A stretch of 12,558 bases of DNA. Origin: a virus. Made by a program: the position numbers and the translations under genes. Numbering within the stretch: position 1 is the first letter of the stretch; every line of letters begins with the position of its first letter. The notes beneath the pieces were generated by a model, which was given only the letters and a program-made list of their open reading frames with translations, made no database searches and was not told the DNA's origin. The stretch is taken from UHGV virus genome UHGV-1300782; one strand, given 5' to 3'. Positions 167-12,470 of this stretch are shown here, piece by piece.

Positions 167-243
167 TTACCGTTGAGGTAATAATTATGCTTATTTGGTT
201 TGGTGTCAATAGATATGAGTTAAAAAAATTACCCGTAAGGTAA
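167..243 (-). promoter_or_regulatory. PL-like leftward early promoter bracketed by two operator palindromes
   Basis: Read on the minus strand: -35 TTGACA (plus 204-209), 17-nt spacer, -10 AATTAT (plus 181-186). Perfect palindromes TTACC-GTTGA-GGTAA at 167-181 (abutting the -10, over the start site) and TTACC-CGTAA-GGTAA at 229-243 (20 bp upstream of the -35). Operator centres are 62 bp apart. Confidence 0.6.
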
Positions 244-250
244 TCTATCT

Positions 251-280
251 GGCAATAAAAAAGCCGCCATGAGGCGGCTT
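251..280 (-). terminator. Intrinsic terminator of the repressor gene
   Basis: GC-rich hairpin AAGCCGCC-atga-GGCGGCTT (261-280) followed on the minus strand by TTTTATTGCC (reverse complement of 251-260); lies about 20 nt past the repressor stop codon. No U-tract on the plus strand, so unidirectional. Confidence 0.7.
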
Positions 281-300
281 ACTTGCTGAAAACTATAGTT

Positions 301-885
301 TTATTGTTTGCTTTTTTCGTTCTGGTTGATGACAAATTCAATGTAACTTTCGATCTTTGCTTTCTCGGTTTCGGGTAACAATGCGTAGCGCGAGCGGTCA
401 TAGTTGATGGTCGCAGGGTCGTGCGGGTGAATCAGTAATTCATAGCCGTGACGCCCGAATGCGGATGCCACATTCTCCAGGGTGGAAATGGAAACGCTAA
501 CCTCATTGTTTAACAGGCGGCTGATTGTCACCTGGGCGACGCCGGATGCGCGGTGAAGTTTTCCCTGTGTTGAAAGGTCGCGGCTTTCGCTCATCCAGCG
601 TTCCAGGTTGTGAGCCGCCAGCTGACCAATGTCGCTTGGGCCGACAGGCTGAAAACCTTCCTGAGAAAGCGAGCGATCGATATCAAGCCAGTTACGGGGT
701 TTATTGGCGGCAGCTTCAATTTTTCGCGCAACCTGGTCGCCGATAACCTTCTTGCCAAGAGCCCAGCGGTTTACCAGATTTGCCTGAGTTCCAAGTTTTT
801 CTGCCATCCGCGTCTGAACACCATTGAATTCACGGTCGATCAAGTCGTTGAGATTTTGCCTGCGGACGTCCTGGATACTTTTCAT
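301..885 (-). CDS. Prophage immunity repressor, tandem helix-turn-helix, no recognisable S24 autopeptidase domain
   Basis: 194-codon ORF divergent from the cro-like gene, with operator palindromes on both sides. N-terminal segment QTRMAEKLGTQANLVNRWALGKK and C-terminal segment SGVAQVTISRLLNNEVSVSISTLENVASAFG both read as HTH units. No Ala-Gly cleavage site or Ser/Lys dyad motif seen. Own terminator at 251-280. No SD before the ATG. Confidence 0.7.
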   Translation of the reverse strand: MKSIQDVRRQNLNDLIDREFNGVQTRMAEKLGTQANLVNRWALGKKVIGDQVARKIEAAANKPRNWLDIDRSLSQEGFQPVGPSDIGQLAAHNLERWMSESRDLSTQGKLHRASGVAQVTISRLLNNEVSVSISTLENVASAFGRHGYELLIHPHDPATINYDRSRYALLPETEKAKIESYIEFVINQNEKSKQ

Positions 886-940
886 TTTCTGGAAAATCGC
901 CTCATATATGAATCAGTAGATGATTCAATTTAAAGCAATA

Positions 941-1014
941 TTACCCAACAGGTAAATGCACCTCATAGGTAACTATCCTTGATTTTTGTTACCTTATGGG
1001 TGAATATTTATTAT
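941..1014. promoter_or_regulatory. OR-like operator cluster with candidate rightward promoter
   Basis: Three sites between the divergent genes: TTACC-CAACA-GGTAA (941-955, perfect), GCACC-TCATA-GGTAA (958-972), TTACC-TTATG-GGTGA (989-1003). Candidate rightward promoter -35 TTGTTA (986-991), 17-nt spacer, -10 TATTAT (1009-1014), overlapping the third site. The leftward repressor promoter could not be placed with confidence. Confidence 0.55.
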
Positions 1015-1039
1015 CTGAAATAAATATCAGGCAATAGCT

Positions 1040-1270
1040 ATGAGCGATAACGGACATTTCGATTTCAAAAAGCACTGGCTTGCACTTACTCCGGATGAGC
1101 GTGAAGCCTTCGCACAGGAAGCCGGAACGACGAGTCACTATATCCAGACTCACTTAACAGGTAAGCGCAAAATGCCAGGTAAAGTATTGATGAATGGGCT
1201 TTTTAAAGCCTGTAAAACAAGACAATGGCTGCGCTCAAAAGCAGAACTGGCATACTTCTTCTACTCATGA
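1040..1270 (+). CDS. Cro-like small HTH DNA-binding protein
   Basis: 76-codon ORF divergent from the repressor; HTH-like stretch REAFAQEAGTTSHYIQTHLTGKR. Assigned mainly by position and size; no clear SD upstream. Confidence 0.6.
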   Translation: MSDNGHFDFKKHWLALTPDEREAFAQEAGTTSHYIQTHLTGKRKMPGKVLMNGLFKACKTRQWLRSKAELAYFFYS

Positions 1271-1292
1271 TATCCAGCCACAACCCTCTGTA

Positions 1293-1314
1293 GACCGCCA
1301 TCCGGCGGTCTTTT
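1293..1314 (+). terminator. Intrinsic terminator downstream of cro-like gene (tR1-like position)
   Basis: Hairpin GACCGCC-atcc-GGCGGTC (1293-1310) followed by TTTT (1311-1314), 23 nt after the stop at 1270. The U-tract is short, so termination may be partial. Confidence 0.55.
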
Positions 1315-1325
1315 CATATCTATTC

Positions 1326-1340
1326 GCACCTTAAAGGTAA
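1326..1340. promoter_or_regulatory. Degenerate operator-like site GCACC-TTAAA-GGTAA
   Basis: Shares the GCACC left half-site with the 958-972 site and the exact GGTAA right half with 5-nt spacing; lies just after the terminator and upstream of the replication genes. Confidence 0.3.
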
Positions 1341-3270: not shown

Positions 3271-3348
3271 ATTACCTTCTAGGTAATAAAATATTCTAAA
3301 ATCTATTGATTTCGTGTCTTATGTGGTTTTTAATTACCTCAGAGGTAA
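3271..3348 (+). promoter_or_regulatory. Second promoter-operator cassette, rightward, in front of the accessory gene block
   Basis: ATTACC-TTCTA-GGTAAT (3271-3287), -35 TTGATT (3306-3311), 17-nt spacer, -10 TTTAAT (3329-3334), then TTACC-TCAGA-GGTAA (3334-3348) abutting the -10. Operator centres are 62 bp apart, as at PL. The right half-site GAGGT also serves as the SD for the ATG at 3352. Confidence 0.6.
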
Positions 3349-3351
3349 ATC

Positions 3352-3696
3352 ATGAGAAAACAGATACAGGCTCTTGGTCGACTCAAAACAGGCCAGATGA
3401 ACAAAACAGAATCTGCGTATTGCCAGCACCTTGAGCAGCGTAAACGTGCAGGGGAAATCGCCTGGTATCGATTCGAGGGTATCAAGCTGCGGTTAGCTGA
3501 CAACACGTTCTATACGCCCGATTTTGCTGTGATGCTCGCCACCGGCGAGATGGAACTGCACGAAGTGAAAGGTTTCTGGACCGACGACGCCAGAGTGAAA
3601 ACCAAAGTCGCCGCAGATCAGTATCCGTTCCGAATCATCGGGGTAACGGTTAAACCAAAGAAAGCAGGTGGTGGCTGGAACATCGAAGAGTTCTGA
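3352..3696 (+). CDS. DUF1064-like protein with a PD-(D/E)xK nuclease-type motif
   Basis: 114 codons; GAGGT 4 nt before the ATG. Segment YTPDFAVMLATGEMELHEVKG fits PD ... E-x-K spacing. The DUF1064 family assignment is from memory. Confidence 0.6.
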   Translation: MRKQIQALGRLKTGQMNKTESAYCQHLEQRKRAGEIAWYRFEGIKLRLADNTFYTPDFAVMLATGEMELHEVKGFWTDDARVKTKVAADQYPFRIIGVTVKPKKAGGGWNIEEF

Positions 3697-7230: not shown

Positions 7231-7257
7231 GCCGCCAACTATGGCGGCTTTATTTTG
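7231..7257 (+). terminator. Intrinsic terminator between accessory block and terminase genes
   Basis: Hairpin GCCGCCA-acta-TGGCGGC (7231-7248) followed by TTTATTTTG (7249-7257). Confidence 0.7.
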
Positions 7258-7260
7258 CAT

Positions 7261-7292
7261 GGTACTATTACCACAACGGTAACTATTACCAC
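7261..7292. repeat. Direct repeat GGTA(A)CTATTACCAC x2 upstream of terS
   Basis: Exact 10-mer CTATTACCAC at 7265-7274 and 7283-7292. Each copy forms an inverted-order palindrome of the operator half-sites (GGTA-CTAT-TACC at 7261-7272; GGTAA-CTA-TTACC at 7278-7290). Confidence 0.65.
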
Positions 7293-7302
7293 GGTGGTTA
7301 TG

Positions 7303-7896
7303 ATGCCTGCTGAACCTAAAACCTATAAACGCAAATCAACGCAATTTAAGCCACTAACAGCAATGCAGGAGGCTTATTGCCAGTCATACATCAAAACGCC
7401 TGAAAACCAGACTCAGGCAGCGATTAACGCAGGATTCTCCCCAAATACAGCGGCAGTTAAAGCCAGTGTCATGATGCGCGATGAACGCATTCAAAAACGG
7501 ATTGCCGAGCTGATGGAAGAGCGCAACAAACGAATGCGCGTCAGTGCTGATTACGTTCTCATGCGCCTGGTGGAGATCGACCAGATGGACGTGATCGACA
7601 TCCTCAACGACGATGGGAGCCTTAAGCCAATCCGCGAGTGGCCGAAAATCTGGCGCACTACGCTTAGCGGCTTTGATCTGTCATCGACCATCATGAACAT
7701 GAACGAGGATTCGATAGAGACAATCCTCAAAAAAATTAAATGGCCTGACAAGGTGAAGAACCTCGAACTGATTGGTAAGCACGTCGACGTCAACGCATTC
7801 AAAGAACGCCTGGATGTTAATGTGAATGTGACAATTGCTGATCGCATAGCAGCAGCCAGGAAGCGACTCAAAGAACGTCAGGATGGTAATCAGTGA
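7303..7896 (+). CDS. terS: Terminase small subunit (Terminase_2-type)
   Basis: Segment LTAMQEAYCQSYIKTPENQTQAAINAGFSPNTAAVKASVMMRDERIQKRIAELM matches the small-terminase pattern (LT..QE.FC.EY ... QAAI.AGYS). Start placed at ATG 7303 (or 7300) after GGTGG; the TTG 7222 extension in the ORF track reads through the terminator and repeats. Stop overlaps the terL start (GTGA). Confidence 0.7.
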   Translation: MPAEPKTYKRKSTQFKPLTAMQEAYCQSYIKTPENQTQAAINAGFSPNTAAVKASVMMRDERIQKRIAELMEERNKRMRVSADYVLMRLVEIDQMDVIDILNDDGSLKPIREWPKIWRTTLSGFDLSSTIMNMNEDSIETILKKIKWPDKVKNLELIGKHVDVNAFKERLDVNVNVTIADRIAAARKRLKERQDGNQ

Positions 7897-9866: not shown

Positions 9867-9891
9867 ATCAATTGTCTTGATAATCTCACCT

Positions 9892-9916: not shown

Positions 9917-9993
9917 GAACTGGAAGCAATGAGTTATGCCTTCCGTGGCTGTACTGGTTTACAGCATGAAGTCATCGCAATGGCGTCCTGCTG

Positions 9994-10080: not shown

Positions 10081-10157
10081 TGGCGTGGCATGCAGGATTC
10101 GAACCTGCGACCAACCGCTTAGAAGGCGGTTGCTCTGTCCAGCTGAGCTAATGCCAC
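10081..10157 (-). tRNA. tRNA-Arg (anticodon UCU)
   Basis: The reverse complement folds by hand into a 77-nt cloverleaf: acceptor GTGGCAT/ATGCCAC, D-stem GCTC/GAGC, anticodon stem ACCGC/GCGGT with loop CTTCTAA (anticodon TCT), variable loop TGGTC, T-arm GCAGG-TTCGAAT-CCTGC, discriminator G, encoded CCA. Confidence 0.85.
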
Positions 10158-10479: not shown

Positions 10480-10523
10480 TTACCTGAAAGGTAATAATTC
10501 GTGCGTTAAATGTCAACTGTCTA
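10480..10523 (-). promoter_or_regulatory. Third promoter-operator cassette, leftward, feeding the tRNA/insert unit
   Basis: Minus strand reads TAGACA-G-TTGACA ... AATTAT-TACC-TTTCA-GGTAAC. Operator TTACC-N5-GGTAA at plus 10480-10494 abuts a -10-like AATTAT (plus 10494-10499) exactly as at PL. -35 candidates are TAGACA (plus 10518-10523, 18-nt spacer) or TTGACA (plus 10511-10516, spacer too short). A lone GGTAA half-site sits at 10552-10556, where a second operator 62 bp away would lie. Confidence 0.45.
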
Positions 10524-10584
10524 CGATAAATAAATCATATGTGGTTAAATTGGTAATAATTTAATTGCGTACGGAGTCATTGAT

Positions 10585-10791
10585 ATGTGCATGGGTAGCT
10601 CACCATCAGTGCCTGCAACACCAGAAGTTCAGGCAGCACCACAGGAGCAGGATGCCGCCGTTGTTGATGCCCGCGACGAAGAAACTCGTCGCCGTCGCGC
10701 TGCTGCTGGTCGTAGTTCTACGCTGCTTACCGGTTCTCAGGGCGACACATCAACCGCTAATACCAGCGGTAAAACGCTGCTTGGTCAGTAA
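10585..10791 (+). CDS. Hypothetical small protein (68 aa), low-complexity and Arg-rich, upstream of portal
   Basis: GGAG (10573-10576) 8 nt before ATG 10585. Codon choice (CGT/CGC, GGT, CTG, ACC) looks like expressed enterobacterial genes. The overlapping TTG-initiated frame at 10565 has no SD and was not called. Confidence 0.55.
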   Translation: MCMGSSPSVPATPEVQAAPQEQDAAVVDARDEETRRRRAAAGRSSTLLTGSQGDTSTANTSGKTLLGQ

Positions 10792-10805: not shown

Positions 10806-12470
10806 ATGGCGGAAACAACTAAAGAGCGATTGAACAAACAGTTCGCACAACTTGAAAGCGAGCGTCAGTCGTTCGAGCCGCACTGGCGCGAGTTGAGTGA
10901 TTACATCAACCCGCGTGGTTCCCGCTTTCTGACTTCTGAGGTCAACCGTAACGATCGACGCAATACACGCATTATTGATTCGACCGGGACTATGGCGGCG
11001 CGCACTCTCGCCAGCGGCATGATGTCAGGCATCACAAGCCCCGCGCGTCCGTGGTTTCGCCTGGCTACGCCAGATCCTGAAATGATGGATTATGGCCCTG
11101 TTAAGTTGTGGCTTGAGGCGGTGCAGAACCGCATGAACGATATGTTCAATAAGTCGAATCTCTATCAGTCGCTGCCGCAGTTATACGGAAGCCTCGGCAC
11201 ATACAGCACTGGTGCAATGGCAGTGCTGGAGGATGACGAGGACATCATTCGCACAATGCCATTCCCGATAGGAAGTTACTACCTGGCTAACTCACCTCGT
11301 GGCAGTGTGGACACCTGTTTTCGCAAGTTCTCTATGACTGTTCGTCAGCTTGTTCAGGAGTTCGGGCTAAATAACGTCAGCGAATCCGTAAAAAGCATGT
11401 GGGAAAGCGGCACCTACGAGAAGTGGATTGAAGTGATGCATTCGGTTTACCCGAACATTGACCGCGATACATCGAAGCTGGATAGCAAGAACAAGCCATT
11501 CAAATCGGTTTATTACGAGGTTGGTGGCGATAACGACAAGTTGTTGCGTGAGTCCGGATTCGATGAGTTTCCAATTATGGCTCCGCGCTGGGAAGTTAAC
11601 GGCGAAGATGTTTATGGATCATCATGCCCGGGTATGCTGGCGCTTGGACCTGTTAAGGCATTGCAGCTTCTCCAGAAGCGCAAGTCGCAGTTGATTGATA
11701 AAGCCACCAATCCGCCGATGGTTGCTCCGACTTCCCTCAAGAATCAGCGCGCCTCCCTTCTTCCTGGCGACATCACGTATATCGATCAGATTACTGGTCA
11801 TGATGGTTTCAGGCCTGCTTATCTGGTTAACCCCAGTACAGCAGATTTGGTGGCAGACATTCAGGACACTCGTCAAATCATTAACAGCGCCTACTTTGTC
11901 GATCTGTTCATGATGTTGCAGAACATCAATACCCGCTCGATGCCTGTTGAAGCGGTGATCGAAATGAAAGAAGAAAAACTTCTGATGTTGGGGCCGGTTC
12001 TGGAGCGTCTGAACGACGAATGTCTTAATCCTCTCATTGACCGCGCTTTCTCGATGATGGTGCGTAAAAACATGCTGCCGCCACCGCCTGACGCGATGGA
12101 AGGTATGCCCCTGAAGGTCGAATACATTTCCGTCATGGCTCAGGCGCAGAAGTCTATCGGCCTGTCCAGTCTGGCGTCTACGGTCAACTTCATTGGTCAA
12201 CTTGCGCAAGCGAAACCAGAAGCTCTCGACAAACTCAACGTTGATCAGGCGATCGATGCATTCGCTGATATGTCCGGAGTGTCTCCAACCGTCATTGTTC
12301 CGCAGGAACAGGTTGAGCAGGCTCGCCAGCAACGGGCACAGCAACAACAGCAGCAACAAATGATGGAGATGGGGATGGCGGCGGCACAGGGTGCCAAGAC
12401 GCTAAGCGAAGCTAAAACTTCGGATCCGAGTGTTTTGTCAGCTATGGCGAATGCAGTTAGTGGTCGCTGA
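10806..12470 (+). CDS. Portal (head-to-tail connector) protein, T7-type family
   Basis: 554 codons; GGAG 9 nt before ATG 10806. N-terminal pattern (ERQSFEPHWRELSDYINP ... ARPWFRLATP) and the Gln/Met-rich C-terminus (QQQQQQQMMEMGMAAAQGA) parallel the T7 gp8 connector as I recall it. Confidence 0.8.
   Translation: MAETTKERLNKQFAQLESERQSFEPHWRELSDYINPRGSRFLTSEVNRNDRRNTRIIDSTGTMAARTLASGMMSGITSPARPWFRLATPDPEMMDYGPVKLWLEAVQNRMNDMFNKSNLYQSLPQLYGSLGTYSTGAMAVLEDDEDIIRTMPFPIGSYYLANSPRGSVDTCFRKFSMTVRQLVQEFGLNNVSESVKSMWESGTYEKWIEVMHSVYPNIDRDTSKLDSKNKPFKSVYYEVGGDNDKLLRESGFDEFPIMAPRWEVNGEDVYGSSCPGMLALGPVKALQLLQKRKSQLIDKATNPPMVAPTSLKNQRASLLPGDITYIDQITGHDGFRPAYLVNPSTADLVADIQDTRQIINSAYFVDLFMMLQNINTRSMPVEAVIEMKEEKLLMLGPVLERLNDECLNPLIDRAFSMMVRKNMLPPPPDAMEGMPLKVEYISVMAQAQKSIGLSSLASTVNFIGQLAQAKPEALDKLNVDQAIDAFADMSGVSPTVIVPQEQVEQARQQRAQQQQQQQMMEMGMAAAQGAKTLSEAKTSDPSVLSAMANAVSGR
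12262..12356 (+). repeat. Direct repeat, copy 1 (inside portal coding sequence)
   Basis: 95 bp, 94/95 identical to 12464-12558 (offset 202 bp); the single mismatch is C at 12301 versus T at 12503. Confidence 0.85.

Follow-up and report, generated by a model that had tools for sequence, protein, structure and literature searches.

What does the inverted repeat TTACC-N5-GGTAA, which recurs around the repressor gene of a prophage, mark, and how far does the family extend? The DNA analysed here, a 12,558 nt stretch of the virus genome UHGV-1300782 (the window), belongs to an epsilon15-like (Uetakevirus) Escherichia coli prophage and is 97–98% identical to vB_EcoP_PAS61, phiV10 and TL-2011b. An initial annotation, made from the sequence alone, had described six copies and read them as operators that organise the immunity region. 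All six are present, three of them perfect (167–181, 229–243 and 941–955) and three near-copies (958–972, 989–1003 and 1326–1340), and to these we add four perfect sites, beginning at 3272, 3334, 7268 and 10480, and one with a single mismatch at 7286. The sites had been called perfect 15 bp palindromes; as the 5 bp spacer is not palindromic, each is instead a 5+5 inverted repeat flanking a non-palindromic spacer. The extended consensus is approximately ATTACC-N5-GGTAAT.

The earlier statement that the motif exceeds chance expectation holds by a wide margin. The window contains seven perfect matches (167, 229, 941, 3272, 3334, 7268 and 10480), compared with 0.00 in 200 dinucleotide-preserving shuffles of the window and an analytic expectation of 0.012 (12558/4^10). 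Four near-copies (958, 989, 1326 and 7286) were accepted on the basis of conserved position rather than match count, the equivalent positions being occupied in related phages. The remaining 11 two-mismatch matches in the window all lie within genes and are background, because host E. coli DNA yields approximately 7.3 matches with up to two mismatches per 12.56 kb (28–30 per 50 kb). This abundance of loose matches is all that favours reading the motif as random or as a widespread host repeat, the latter raised in the initial annotation. We consider that reading extremely improbable, as 150 kb of host chromosome and 10 kb of prophage flanks contained no perfect site, while nine were found in the 39 kb of a sister prophage. 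All 11 accepted sites are intergenic, as had been stated for the first six, although intergenic DNA makes up only 11.2% of the window; this count presumes that terS starts at the conserved ATG at 7303 and not at TTG 7222, the start annotated in some relatives. Phages with hosts in four genera also agree in the position and spacing of the sites. Together, the shuffles, the host DNA control and the intergenic placement refute the chance and host-repeat reading.

A scan of related genomes, which the initial annotation had suggested, found the motif at orthologous junctions in six relatives, namely epsilon15, phiV10, SPC32H, Tyrion, the Klebsiella phage BUCT711 and the EC5654 prophage, whose hosts are E. 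coli, Salmonella, Enterobacter and Klebsiella. When the intergenic regions of the relatives were aligned, the conserved islands were the operators and the −35/−10 blocks. Across eight sequences, the spacings within the groups of sites described below were 62 (or 63) bp for the PL pair, 17 plus 30 or 31 bp for the OR triplet, 62 bp for the post-replication pair and 18 bp for the terS pair.

The initial annotation had not recognised the sequence from lambda, P22, 434 or HK022. However, the GenBank record of epsilon15 (AY150271.2) includes seven features labelled 'protein_bind: repressor', all of which contain the TTACC-N5-GGTAA core; they lie at PL, after the replication genes, and at the terS, portal and tailspike positions. 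Two of these, at 12–27 and 2931–2947 of epsilon15, are the orthologues of the sites found here at 7268 and 10480, respectively. The operators are thus already known, on the basis of this annotation and of secondary citations. In a full-text literature search, the consensus string ATTACCWDWWNGGTAAT was unmatched, and ATTACC/GGTAAT combined with 'repressor' returned only unrelated papers. The window resembles epsilon15, the repressor of which is gp38, in the core motif with flanking A/T, in the presence of a 62 bp PL pair, a rep/cro-like region, a 62 bp post-replication pair and terS and gp3/portal sites, and in gene order and genus. It differs in its repressor, which is only 43% identical, and in two sites, those at 958 and 1326, that are off consensus (GCACC). 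The spacers also differ between groups, being more G/C-rich in the E. coli group and A/T-rich in the Salmonella and Klebsiella group.

The repressor gene, rep, occupies 301–885 on the minus strand and is followed by an intrinsic terminator (261–280, minus strand) with an 8 bp stem that includes six GC pairs and a T-run. Its 194 aa product is predicted to consist of an N-terminal helix-turn-helix (HTH) domain and a C-terminal tetramerisation/Ant-binding domain. Rep is 99.5% identical to the ORF21 repressor of ZX5 and is homologous along its whole length to the SPC32H Rep (PDB 5D50_A; phmmer E=3.5e-42, residues 1–190), though only 43% identical to the Reps of epsilon15 and SPC32H. The alignment is colinear with the Reps of epsilon15, SPC32H, Tyrion and BUCT711. 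A Pfam search of Rep returned only HTH families (HTH_3) and no Peptidase_S24 domain. Its best relative of solved structure is the Rep of SPC32H, a tetramer under antirepressor control, and not CI; lacking the S24 domain, the window's Rep is not lambda-CI-like. Residues 1–72 are the most conserved part of the protein (53% identity, compared with 38–39% for the C-terminal domain) and include NLVNRW (residues 36–41), which is invariant across the family. NLVNRW is a candidate recognition helix, the conservation of which would fit the unchanged half-site.

Overexpression of the ZX5 repressor blocks lytic growth, abolishes free phage and reduces holin transcription by 99.97% (PMC9782041). According to a secondary account, the Rep of SPC32H binds palindromic DNA as a tetramer in which the DNA-binding pairs come from different dimers, and is inactivated by a tetrameric Ant (PMC9638917). 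The C-terminal domain of SPC32H Rep resembles a DNA-looping tetramerisation fold (PMC9986798). We infer, with a probability of roughly 85%, that the TTACC-N5-GGTAA sites serve as operators for Rep, the repressor that this epsilon15-like prophage encodes, and that the N-terminal HTH domains of Rep would read both TTACC half-sites.

The leftward promoter beside rep illustrates the arrangement. As the initial annotation had proposed, two sites bracket this promoter, the sigma-70-type PL (181–209, minus strand), for which TTGACA (209–204) and AATTAT (186–181), separated by 17 bp, are the putative −35 and −10 elements; both are kept in relatives, and PL would drive the gp37-like/recombination operon. 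PL matches the consensus at 10 of 12 positions in a promoter scan that overall returned 12 promoter-like sites, compared with 16.4 in shuffled sequence, and so has little discriminating power; the promoter positions given here are therefore putative and rest on consensus and conservation. OL1 (167–181; TTACCGTTGAGGTAA) is perfect and overlaps the −10 and +1 of PL; on the minus strand the two elements share position 181, where the −10 has its final T and the operator its first. Its position is conserved in Tyrion, epsilon15, SPC32H and BUCT711, and the CTATTGACA block and the −10 are kept across five genomes. OL2 (229–243; TTACCCGTAAGGTAA), also perfect, is 19 nt upstream of the −35. The two are 62 bp apart, centre to centre, as they are in all eight sequences compared (63 bp in two cases). 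In epsilon15 a third operator on the PL side lies beside the gp37 ribosome-binding site, in a segment that is deleted from the window.

Three sites lie between rep and a divergent gene for a small HTH protein, as had been described. OR3 (941–955) is perfect, is closest to rep and overlaps a candidate −10 for rep (TAATAT, 943–938, minus strand). OR2 (958–972; GCACCTCATAGGTAA), 17 bp from OR3, has two mismatches; at the same position epsilon15, SPC32H and BUCT711 have a perfect site, with TTACC, and Tyrion has GCACC. OR1 (989–1003; TTACCTTATGGGTGA) has one mismatch and is within the core of the presumed rightward promoter PR (979–1014, plus strand); a one-mismatch site (TCACC or GGTGA) is found there in every relative too. 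TTGATT (979–984) of PR is conserved and a TGATTTTT block is invariant in five genomes, while the promoter scan also gives TTGTTA (986–991) and TATTAT (1009–1014) 17 bp apart, and the exact placement of the −10 is uncertain. The 17 plus 30/31 bp spacing of the triplet is found in all eight sequences. The three sites would control PR, with OR1 inside it, and probably, through OR3 and OR2, the promoter of rep itself. In the window the best-matching OR site is the one closest to the repressor gene. In every genome the site that deviates from the consensus is the one inside PR, which is opposite to the OR1 affinity order of lambda and counts against the reading of the sites as Rep operators.

The divergent gene (1040–1270, plus strand) is followed by an intrinsic terminator (1292–1311, plus strand) and encodes a gp39-like protein that is a candidate Cro-like lytic regulator. 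Its earlier designation as cro-like has moderate support: the protein matches phrog_35 ('transcriptional repressor') at 5.6e-13, but Pfam and PDB sequence searches of it returned no match. Its predicted structure has five helices (pLDDT 81.6) and resembles the HTH domains of YdaS and the 434 repressor, with fold matches that are weak (E of at least 1.1). The sites, or the OR subset, could be bound mainly or additionally by this protein, in the way that lambda Cro shares the operators of CI. The gene lies immediately downstream of the three OR sites and is transcribed away from rep, and its position is conserved in all relatives. However, nothing links the protein to the sites outside OR, and in the epsilon15 record it is the repressor that is named as their binding protein. 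We consider binding by the Cro-like protein unlikely, and it would be compatible with, rather than exclusive of, binding by Rep.

Further sites show that the operator family is a genome-wide regulon and does not organise the immunity region alone, as the replication, DUF1064, terS and gp3/portal operons are also preceded by the motif. The variant site at 1326–1340 (GCACCTTAAAGGTAA) is 17 nt upstream of a conserved promoter-like element, TTGATC (1358–1363) and CAAAAT (1381–1386) separated by 17 bp, before the replication operon. Its position is kept as GTACC, ACACC or ATACC followed by N5-GGTAA in phiV10, Tyrion, epsilon15, SPC32H and BUCT711. The GCACC half-sites at 958 and 1326 were considered as a second specificity class, which was rejected. 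As relatives differ at both positions (TTACC or GCACC at the first; GTACC, ACACC or ATACC at the second), GCACC reflects ordinary drift of weak sites.

The DUF1064 operon has a pair of perfect sites, at 3272–3286 and 3334–3348. The upstream one is 19 nt before the −35 of a putative promoter (3306–3334, plus strand) read from the sequence as TTGATT (3306–3311) and TTTAAT (3329–3334) with 17 bp between them; this promoter is omitted by the scan, which requires A at position 2 of the −10. Five genomes share both CTATTGA and the −10, and the geometry is the same as that of PL. The downstream site overlaps the end of the −10, the +1 and the Shine–Dalgarno sequence of the DUF1064 gene (ATG at 3352). 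The distance between the two sites is again 62 bp in all eight sequences.

Before terS, operator 1 (7268–7282) is perfect and the extended −10 TGgTACTAT (7260–7268) ends on its first T, while operator 2 (7286–7300; TTACCACGGTGGTTA), 18 bp away, has one mismatch and overlaps the terS Shine–Dalgarno sequence (ATG at 7303). The pair is kept in PAS61, phiV10, Tyrion, epsilon15 and the EC5654 prophage; in SPC32H only the first site is found at one mismatch or fewer. PL and the DUF1064 and terS promoters thus share a geometry in which the −10 ends on the T that opens an operator, and at PL and DUF1064 a partner operator lies 62 bp upstream. The perfect site upstream of the gp3/portal operon (10480–10494) does not have this geometry. 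A possible cryptic operator 62 bp downstream of it (TGGTTAAATTGGTAA; 10542–10556) was discarded, as only its right half matches and the tailspike-side counterpart of this element in a sister prophage lies 50 bp from its operator instead of 62 bp. In complete relatives the motif also precedes the antirepressor/tailspike and lysis genes.

The sites at 3272/3334, 7268/7286 and 10480 could instead be promoter elements, or sites for a phage-encoded activator of middle or late genes, that merely look like operators. They precede late operons (terS and portal) where the promoters are poor sigma-70 matches, a second conserved motif, ATGTGGTT, is nearby (3321 and 10539) and also occurs before the tailspike gene in relatives, and PerC-like and AlpA-like regulators are encoded by the relatives' left operon. 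Against this, they have exactly the core of the OL and OR sites, the geometry of PL recurs at the 3272/3334 pair (a 19 nt gap to the −35, a −10 that ends on the operator and 62 bp spacing), and the orthologous late sites are annotated as repressor-binding in epsilon15. The loss of holin transcription on overexpression of the ZX5 repressor points the same way, though this effect may be indirect (PMC9782041). An activator or promoter-element role for these sites is thus quite improbable, and we retain Rep as the protein that would bind them.

If Rep does bind, then at the PL, DUF1064 and terS promoters an operator that begins at the last base of the −10 would cover the transcription start, and bound Rep would therefore exclude RNA polymerase. 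At PL and DUF1064, the second operator, 19 nt before the −35, is 62 bp upstream, which is about six helical turns and would place both operators on the same face of the DNA. As a Rep tetramer has two DNA-binding pairs, a single one could span the pair of operators and clamp the promoter, though 62 bp is short for a DNA loop. With one or two sites ahead of each of the replication, terminase and portal operons, one repressor would be able to silence each lytic unit directly.

The OL/OR-type layout described earlier is right locally and too narrow in scope, as operators precede operons across the whole prophage. As in lambda, the repressor gene with its terminator is followed by a leftward promoter that has a pair of operators, a further three separate the divergent repressor and small HTH genes, and the operators overlap core promoters. 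However, the operator sequence is unrelated to that of lambda, Rep lacks an S24 domain and is not homologous to CI, N/Q antitermination genes are not evident within the window, and no fewer than six transcription units, rather than two, have operators. In lambdoid switches the operators are confined to OL and OR and late genes are controlled by antitermination, whereas here the sites at 1326, 3272, 3334, 7268, 7286 and 10480 precede other operons. Dispersed operators are also a feature of P1 C1 and N15 CB, where one repressor silences individual lytic operons through many operators and antirepressors take part in induction. The P1 C1 operators are asymmetric 17-mers. C1 is probably unrelated to Rep, and the window's sites are symmetric 5-N5-5 inverted repeats that would be read by a member of the HTH-containing SPC32H Rep family.

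The closer parallel is the Rep-Ant-LexA switch of SPC32H (PDB 5D50/5D4Z), with which the window shares full-length Rep homology, the same motif in the same places and, apparently, a Rep without a self-cleavage domain; sister prophages of the window have an Ant homologue behind a LexA box. The ant gene and its LexA box lie outside the window, and the C-terminal, Ant-binding domain of Rep is only 38% identical to that of SPC32H, so Ant specificity may differ. The tetramer and the 'trans' mode of DNA binding are carried over to the window's Rep from the literature on SPC32H (PMC9638917). The Ant homologue is preceded by a perfect LexA box, CTGTATATTTATACAG, in the sister prophage EC5654, and a LexA box is found beside it in epsilon15, SPC32H and Tyrion as well. 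A search of the window for LexA boxes returned a single match (9949–9964), which adjoins neither an operator nor rep. Induction would proceed without self-cleavage of the repressor, through a LexA-controlled Ant, encoded outside the window, that disassembles the Rep tetramer; for this prophage, we infer that route from its relatives.

Among phages of four host genera, Rep identity has fallen to 43% while the half-site has stayed identical, and immunity specificity may therefore have moved from operator recognition to the interface of the C-terminal domain with the antirepressor. We put forward only tentatively the combined proposal that each 62 bp pair is clamped by a single Rep tetramer and that specificity has shifted to this interface. 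If specificity has shifted in this way, cross-repression would be expected among epsilon15-like phages of E. coli, Salmonella, Enterobacter and Klebsiella.

In biological terms little is added to what is known from epsilon15 and SPC32H; of specialist interest are the strict 62 bp promoter-clamping geometry and an operator core that is unchanged despite strongly diverged repressors. For annotation, Rep operator is the appropriate label for these sites in E. coli prophages of the phiV10 type; the phiV10, PAS61 and RefSeq records do not annotate them, although the region is present in approximately 10% of complete E. coli genomes (561/5426). The operator map also sets out the transcription units of the prophage and corrects the start codon of terS.

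By megablast, the window is an epsilon15-like podovirus of the genus Uetakevirus. It is 97–98% identical to Escherichia phages vB_EcoP_PAS61, phiv142-3, ZX5, TL-2011b and phiV10, and approximately 80% identical to epsilon15, SPN1S and SPC32H across the terminase/portal part. Of 5426 complete E. coli genomes, 561 carry the first 3.4 kb at 95–99% identity. The sister prophage in EC5654 (L007) adjoins guaA, a location also published for ZX5 (PMC9782041). The terminal part of a gp37-like gene (to 147) and the predicted repressor gene rep (301–885) are on the minus strand, and are followed by a small HTH gene (cro-like, 1040–1270), a gp40-like gene (1421–1621), a DnaT-like initiator gene with HTH_36 (1637–2452), a lambda-P-like gene (to 3234), a DUF1064/Holliday-junction-resolvase-like gene (3352–3696), a run of small genes, and terS and terL (to 9368). 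Beyond these are a leftward ORF of unknown function (phrog_4846, likely start near 9881), gp3 (10585–10791) and the portal gene (10806–12470). A tRNA-Arg gene (anticodon tct, 10081–10157, minus strand) lies between terL and the portal operon, as in SPC32H and the EC5654 prophage, with a strong terminator (10036–10001) downstream on its own strand. The initiator gene contains tandem iteron-like repeats (1934–2073; an 18-bp unit ×3.1, the exact 24-bp unit CCCAAAAACGGGATGTTGAATGAT ×2.6 and a 12-bp unit ×2.4). They are probably the origin of replication, much as the lambda ori is located within gene O.

All six copies of TTACC-N5-GGTAA reported in the initial annotation were found. Those at 167–181 (OL1), 229–243 (OL2) and 941–955 (OR3) match the motif perfectly. 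These had been called perfect 15-bp palindromes, but the sites are inverted repeats (5+5) flanking a 5-bp spacer that is not itself palindromic. Those at 958–972 (OR2), 989–1003 (OR1) and 1326–1340 are near-copies, as described. Four further perfect sites (3272–3286, 3334–3348, 7268–7282 and 10480–10494) and a one-mismatch site (7286–7300) had been overlooked. The seven perfect sites compare with 0.00 in 200 dinucleotide-preserving shuffles, far above chance as had been proposed. Match count alone is insufficient for accepting near-copies, and the four accepted (958, 989, 1326 and 7286) are intergenic and occupy the same positions in relatives. As E. coli DNA yields 28–30 matches with up to two mismatches per 50 kb, or about 7.3 per window length, the remaining 11 two-mismatch matches, all within genes, were considered background. 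Intergenic DNA makes up 11.2% of the window and contains all 11 accepted sites, as had been claimed for every copy.

The initial annotation did not recognise the operator sequence, but it is already annotated in epsilon15. The GenBank record (AY150271.2) includes seven protein_bind features with the bound moiety given as "repressor, lysogeny", and when extracted all seven contained the TTACC-N5-GGTAA core, most as ATTACC-N5-GGTAAT. They are located before terS, before gp3/portal, in the gp19-tailspike gap, on the PL (leftward promoter) side of the repressor gene (three) and after the replication genes, the same junctions as the window sites. This annotation is itself the evidence that the motif is a known repressor operator. 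Kropinski and colleagues reportedly gave a 17-bp consensus for the epsilon15 sites in 2007; a full-text literature search for a consensus string had no match. The motif was found at orthologous junctions in all six relatives checked, with 11 perfect sites in epsilon15, 10 in SPC32H, nine in Enterobacter phage Tyrion, 10 in Klebsiella phage BUCT711, eight in phiV10, and nine plus seven one-mismatch sites in the 39 kb EC5654 prophage. A host control of three 50-kb EC5654 chromosome segments plus 10 kb of prophage flanks contained no perfect and only five one-mismatch sites, and the motif is therefore not a common host repeat.

The product of rep is a full-length match to Rep, the repressor of SPC32H (PDB 5D50, E=3.5e-42), and Pfam returned only HTH families and no S24 peptidase domain. 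PMC9638917, citing Kim et al. 2016, describes SPC32H Rep as binding palindromic DNA as a tetramer whose DNA-binding pairs are drawn from different dimers, and the tetrameric antirepressor Ant as splitting it into dimers. The C-terminal domain of SPC32H Rep has been classed as a DNA-looping tetramerisation fold (PMC9986798). The window Rep is 99.5% identical to the ZX5 repressor, overexpression of which abolished free phage and reduced holin transcription by 99.97% in a study that did not map operators (PMC9782041). Identity to the epsilon15 and SPC32H Reps is only 43%, and is highest in the N-terminal 72 residues (53% versus 38–39% for the C-terminal domain), where NLVNRW is invariant. This conservation is consistent with an unchanged half-site.

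A simple promoter scan had no statistical power in the window (12 found versus 16.4 expected), and promoters were called by consensus matching and conservation. When the intergenic regions of five genomes are aligned, conservation is concentrated in the operators and promoter hexamers, the intervening sequence drifts, and one promoter cassette recurs. OL2 and OL1 bracket predicted PL, as had been proposed: OL2 is 19 nt from the -35 (TTGACA, 209–204), a 17-nt spacer leads to the -10 (AATTAT, 186–181), and OL1 (181–167) begins with the T that ends the -10. Likewise, operator 3272–3286 is 19 nt from TTGATT (3306–3311) of the predicted rightward DUF1064-operon promoter, and after a 17-nt spacer operator 3334–3348 begins with the T that ends TTTAAT (3329–3334). 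The latter operator extends over the Shine-Dalgarno sequence located 4 nt ahead of ATG 3352. Both pairs are spaced 62 bp centre to centre, and this spacing was 62 (63 in two cases) in 8/8 sequences compared. In epsilon15 (L002 32479–32494), SPC32H (L004 33528) and BUCT711, a third PL-side operator by the gp37 ribosome-binding site is separated from the PL operator by a leader of approximately 60 nt. The window (~148–166) and the rest of the E. coli and Enterobacter group have lost this segment, which places the PL operator immediately next to the Shine-Dalgarno sequence.

The three sites reported between the divergent rep and small HTH genes are OR3, OR2 and OR1, with spacings of 17 and 31 bp; in epsilon15 and SPC32H these are 17 and 30 bp. 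OR1 lies within the predicted core of the rightward promoter PR, which has a conserved TTGATT (979–984), and OR3 appears to overlap a candidate rep -10 (TAATAT, 943–938, minus strand). A Cro-like role is plausible for the putative HTH protein encoded by 1040–1270, which matches phrog_35 "transcriptional repressor" (5.6e-13) and had no Pfam or PDB sequence match. Its single-sequence AlphaFold model (five helices, pLDDT 81.6) most resembles YdaS, 434 repressor and C-protein HTH domains (TM 0.56–0.62, E≥1.1).

The initial annotation saw the operators as organising the immunity region, but they also precede the replication, terminase and portal operons. Downstream of the cro-like gene's terminator, site 1326–1340 is 17 nt before a conserved TTGATC-17-CAAAAT element (1358–1386) ahead of the replication genes. 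Upstream of terS, beyond a terminator (7231–7248), a predicted extended -10 (TGgTACTAT, 7260–7268) ends on the first T of operator 7268–7282, and the second operator, 18 bp further on, overlaps the ribosome-binding site of conserved ATG 7303. In phiV10, PAS61 and RefSeq, a 224-aa terS is annotated from the TTG equivalent to 7222, a frame that crosses the intrinsic terminator and both operators. ATG 7303, with a GGTGG Shine-Dalgarno, is conserved and agrees with the epsilon15, SPC32H and Tyrion starts (~197 aa); terS has probably been over-extended in the annotation of relatives. Site 10480–10494 is approximately 90 nt before gp3, and between them is a 28-nt block (10537–10564) with an extended -10-like TGgTTAAAT. 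This block, ATATGTGGTTAAATTGGTAATAATTTAA, is invariant across E. coli, Salmonella, Enterobacter and Klebsiella phages. Its core, ATGTGGTT, recurs just upstream of the DUF1064-promoter -10 (3319–3334), ahead of the tailspike genes of phiV10 and EC5654 (L007 38298–38320) and ahead of the epsilon15 gp23/holin gene cluster; it could act as a common promoter element or be bound by a second regulator.

The window system would work like the epsilon15/SPC32H Rep-operator system and belongs to it by every sequence test run. The repressor family is on record, as are the motif and its positions, and the window adds a further near-identical member, so we consider the system already known. An explicit operator map and promoter-cassette geometry for phiV10-type E. 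coli phages are absent from the phiV10-type public records examined. The OL/OR-type layout that had been proposed holds for the local arrangement, and likeness to lambda ends there: the repressor is not CI-type and lacks an S24 domain, and operators also occur outside OL and OR. In contrast to lambda, the OR site inside PR deviates from the consensus in every genome, with the perfect site closest to rep, so the occupancy order may differ from OR1 > OR2 > OR3. The dispersed operators of P1 C1 are alike in logic only.

Binding, transcription starts, bridging and induction are inferred here, and the most likely reading is as follows. Rep tetramers would occupy these operators and block RNA polymerase directly where an operator covers the -10 and start site, and with a partner operator 62 bp (about six helical turns) away, a single tetramer could hold both sites. 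The OR triplet would govern rightward transcription and rep autoregulation, and the remaining sites would silence the replication, terminase and portal operons individually. Induction would follow the SPC32H route, via Ant. In every complete relative checked, a perfect LexA box (CTGTATATTTATACAG in EC5654) is immediately upstream of the small homologue of Ant, epsilon15 gp19 (EC5654, L007 38198–38213; epsilon15, L002 19841; SPC32H, L004 19958; Tyrion, L005 21721). The module is outside the window, and its arrangement is consistent with SOS induction via the antirepressor. Within the window, where 0.17 LexA-box-like matches are expected by chance, CTGTACTGGTTTACAG (9949–9964) is upstream of the leftward phrog_4846 ORF, with a terminator-like hairpin (9916–9901) between them. 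This box is conserved in phiV10 (2722) and EC5654 (CTGTACGGGTTTACAG).
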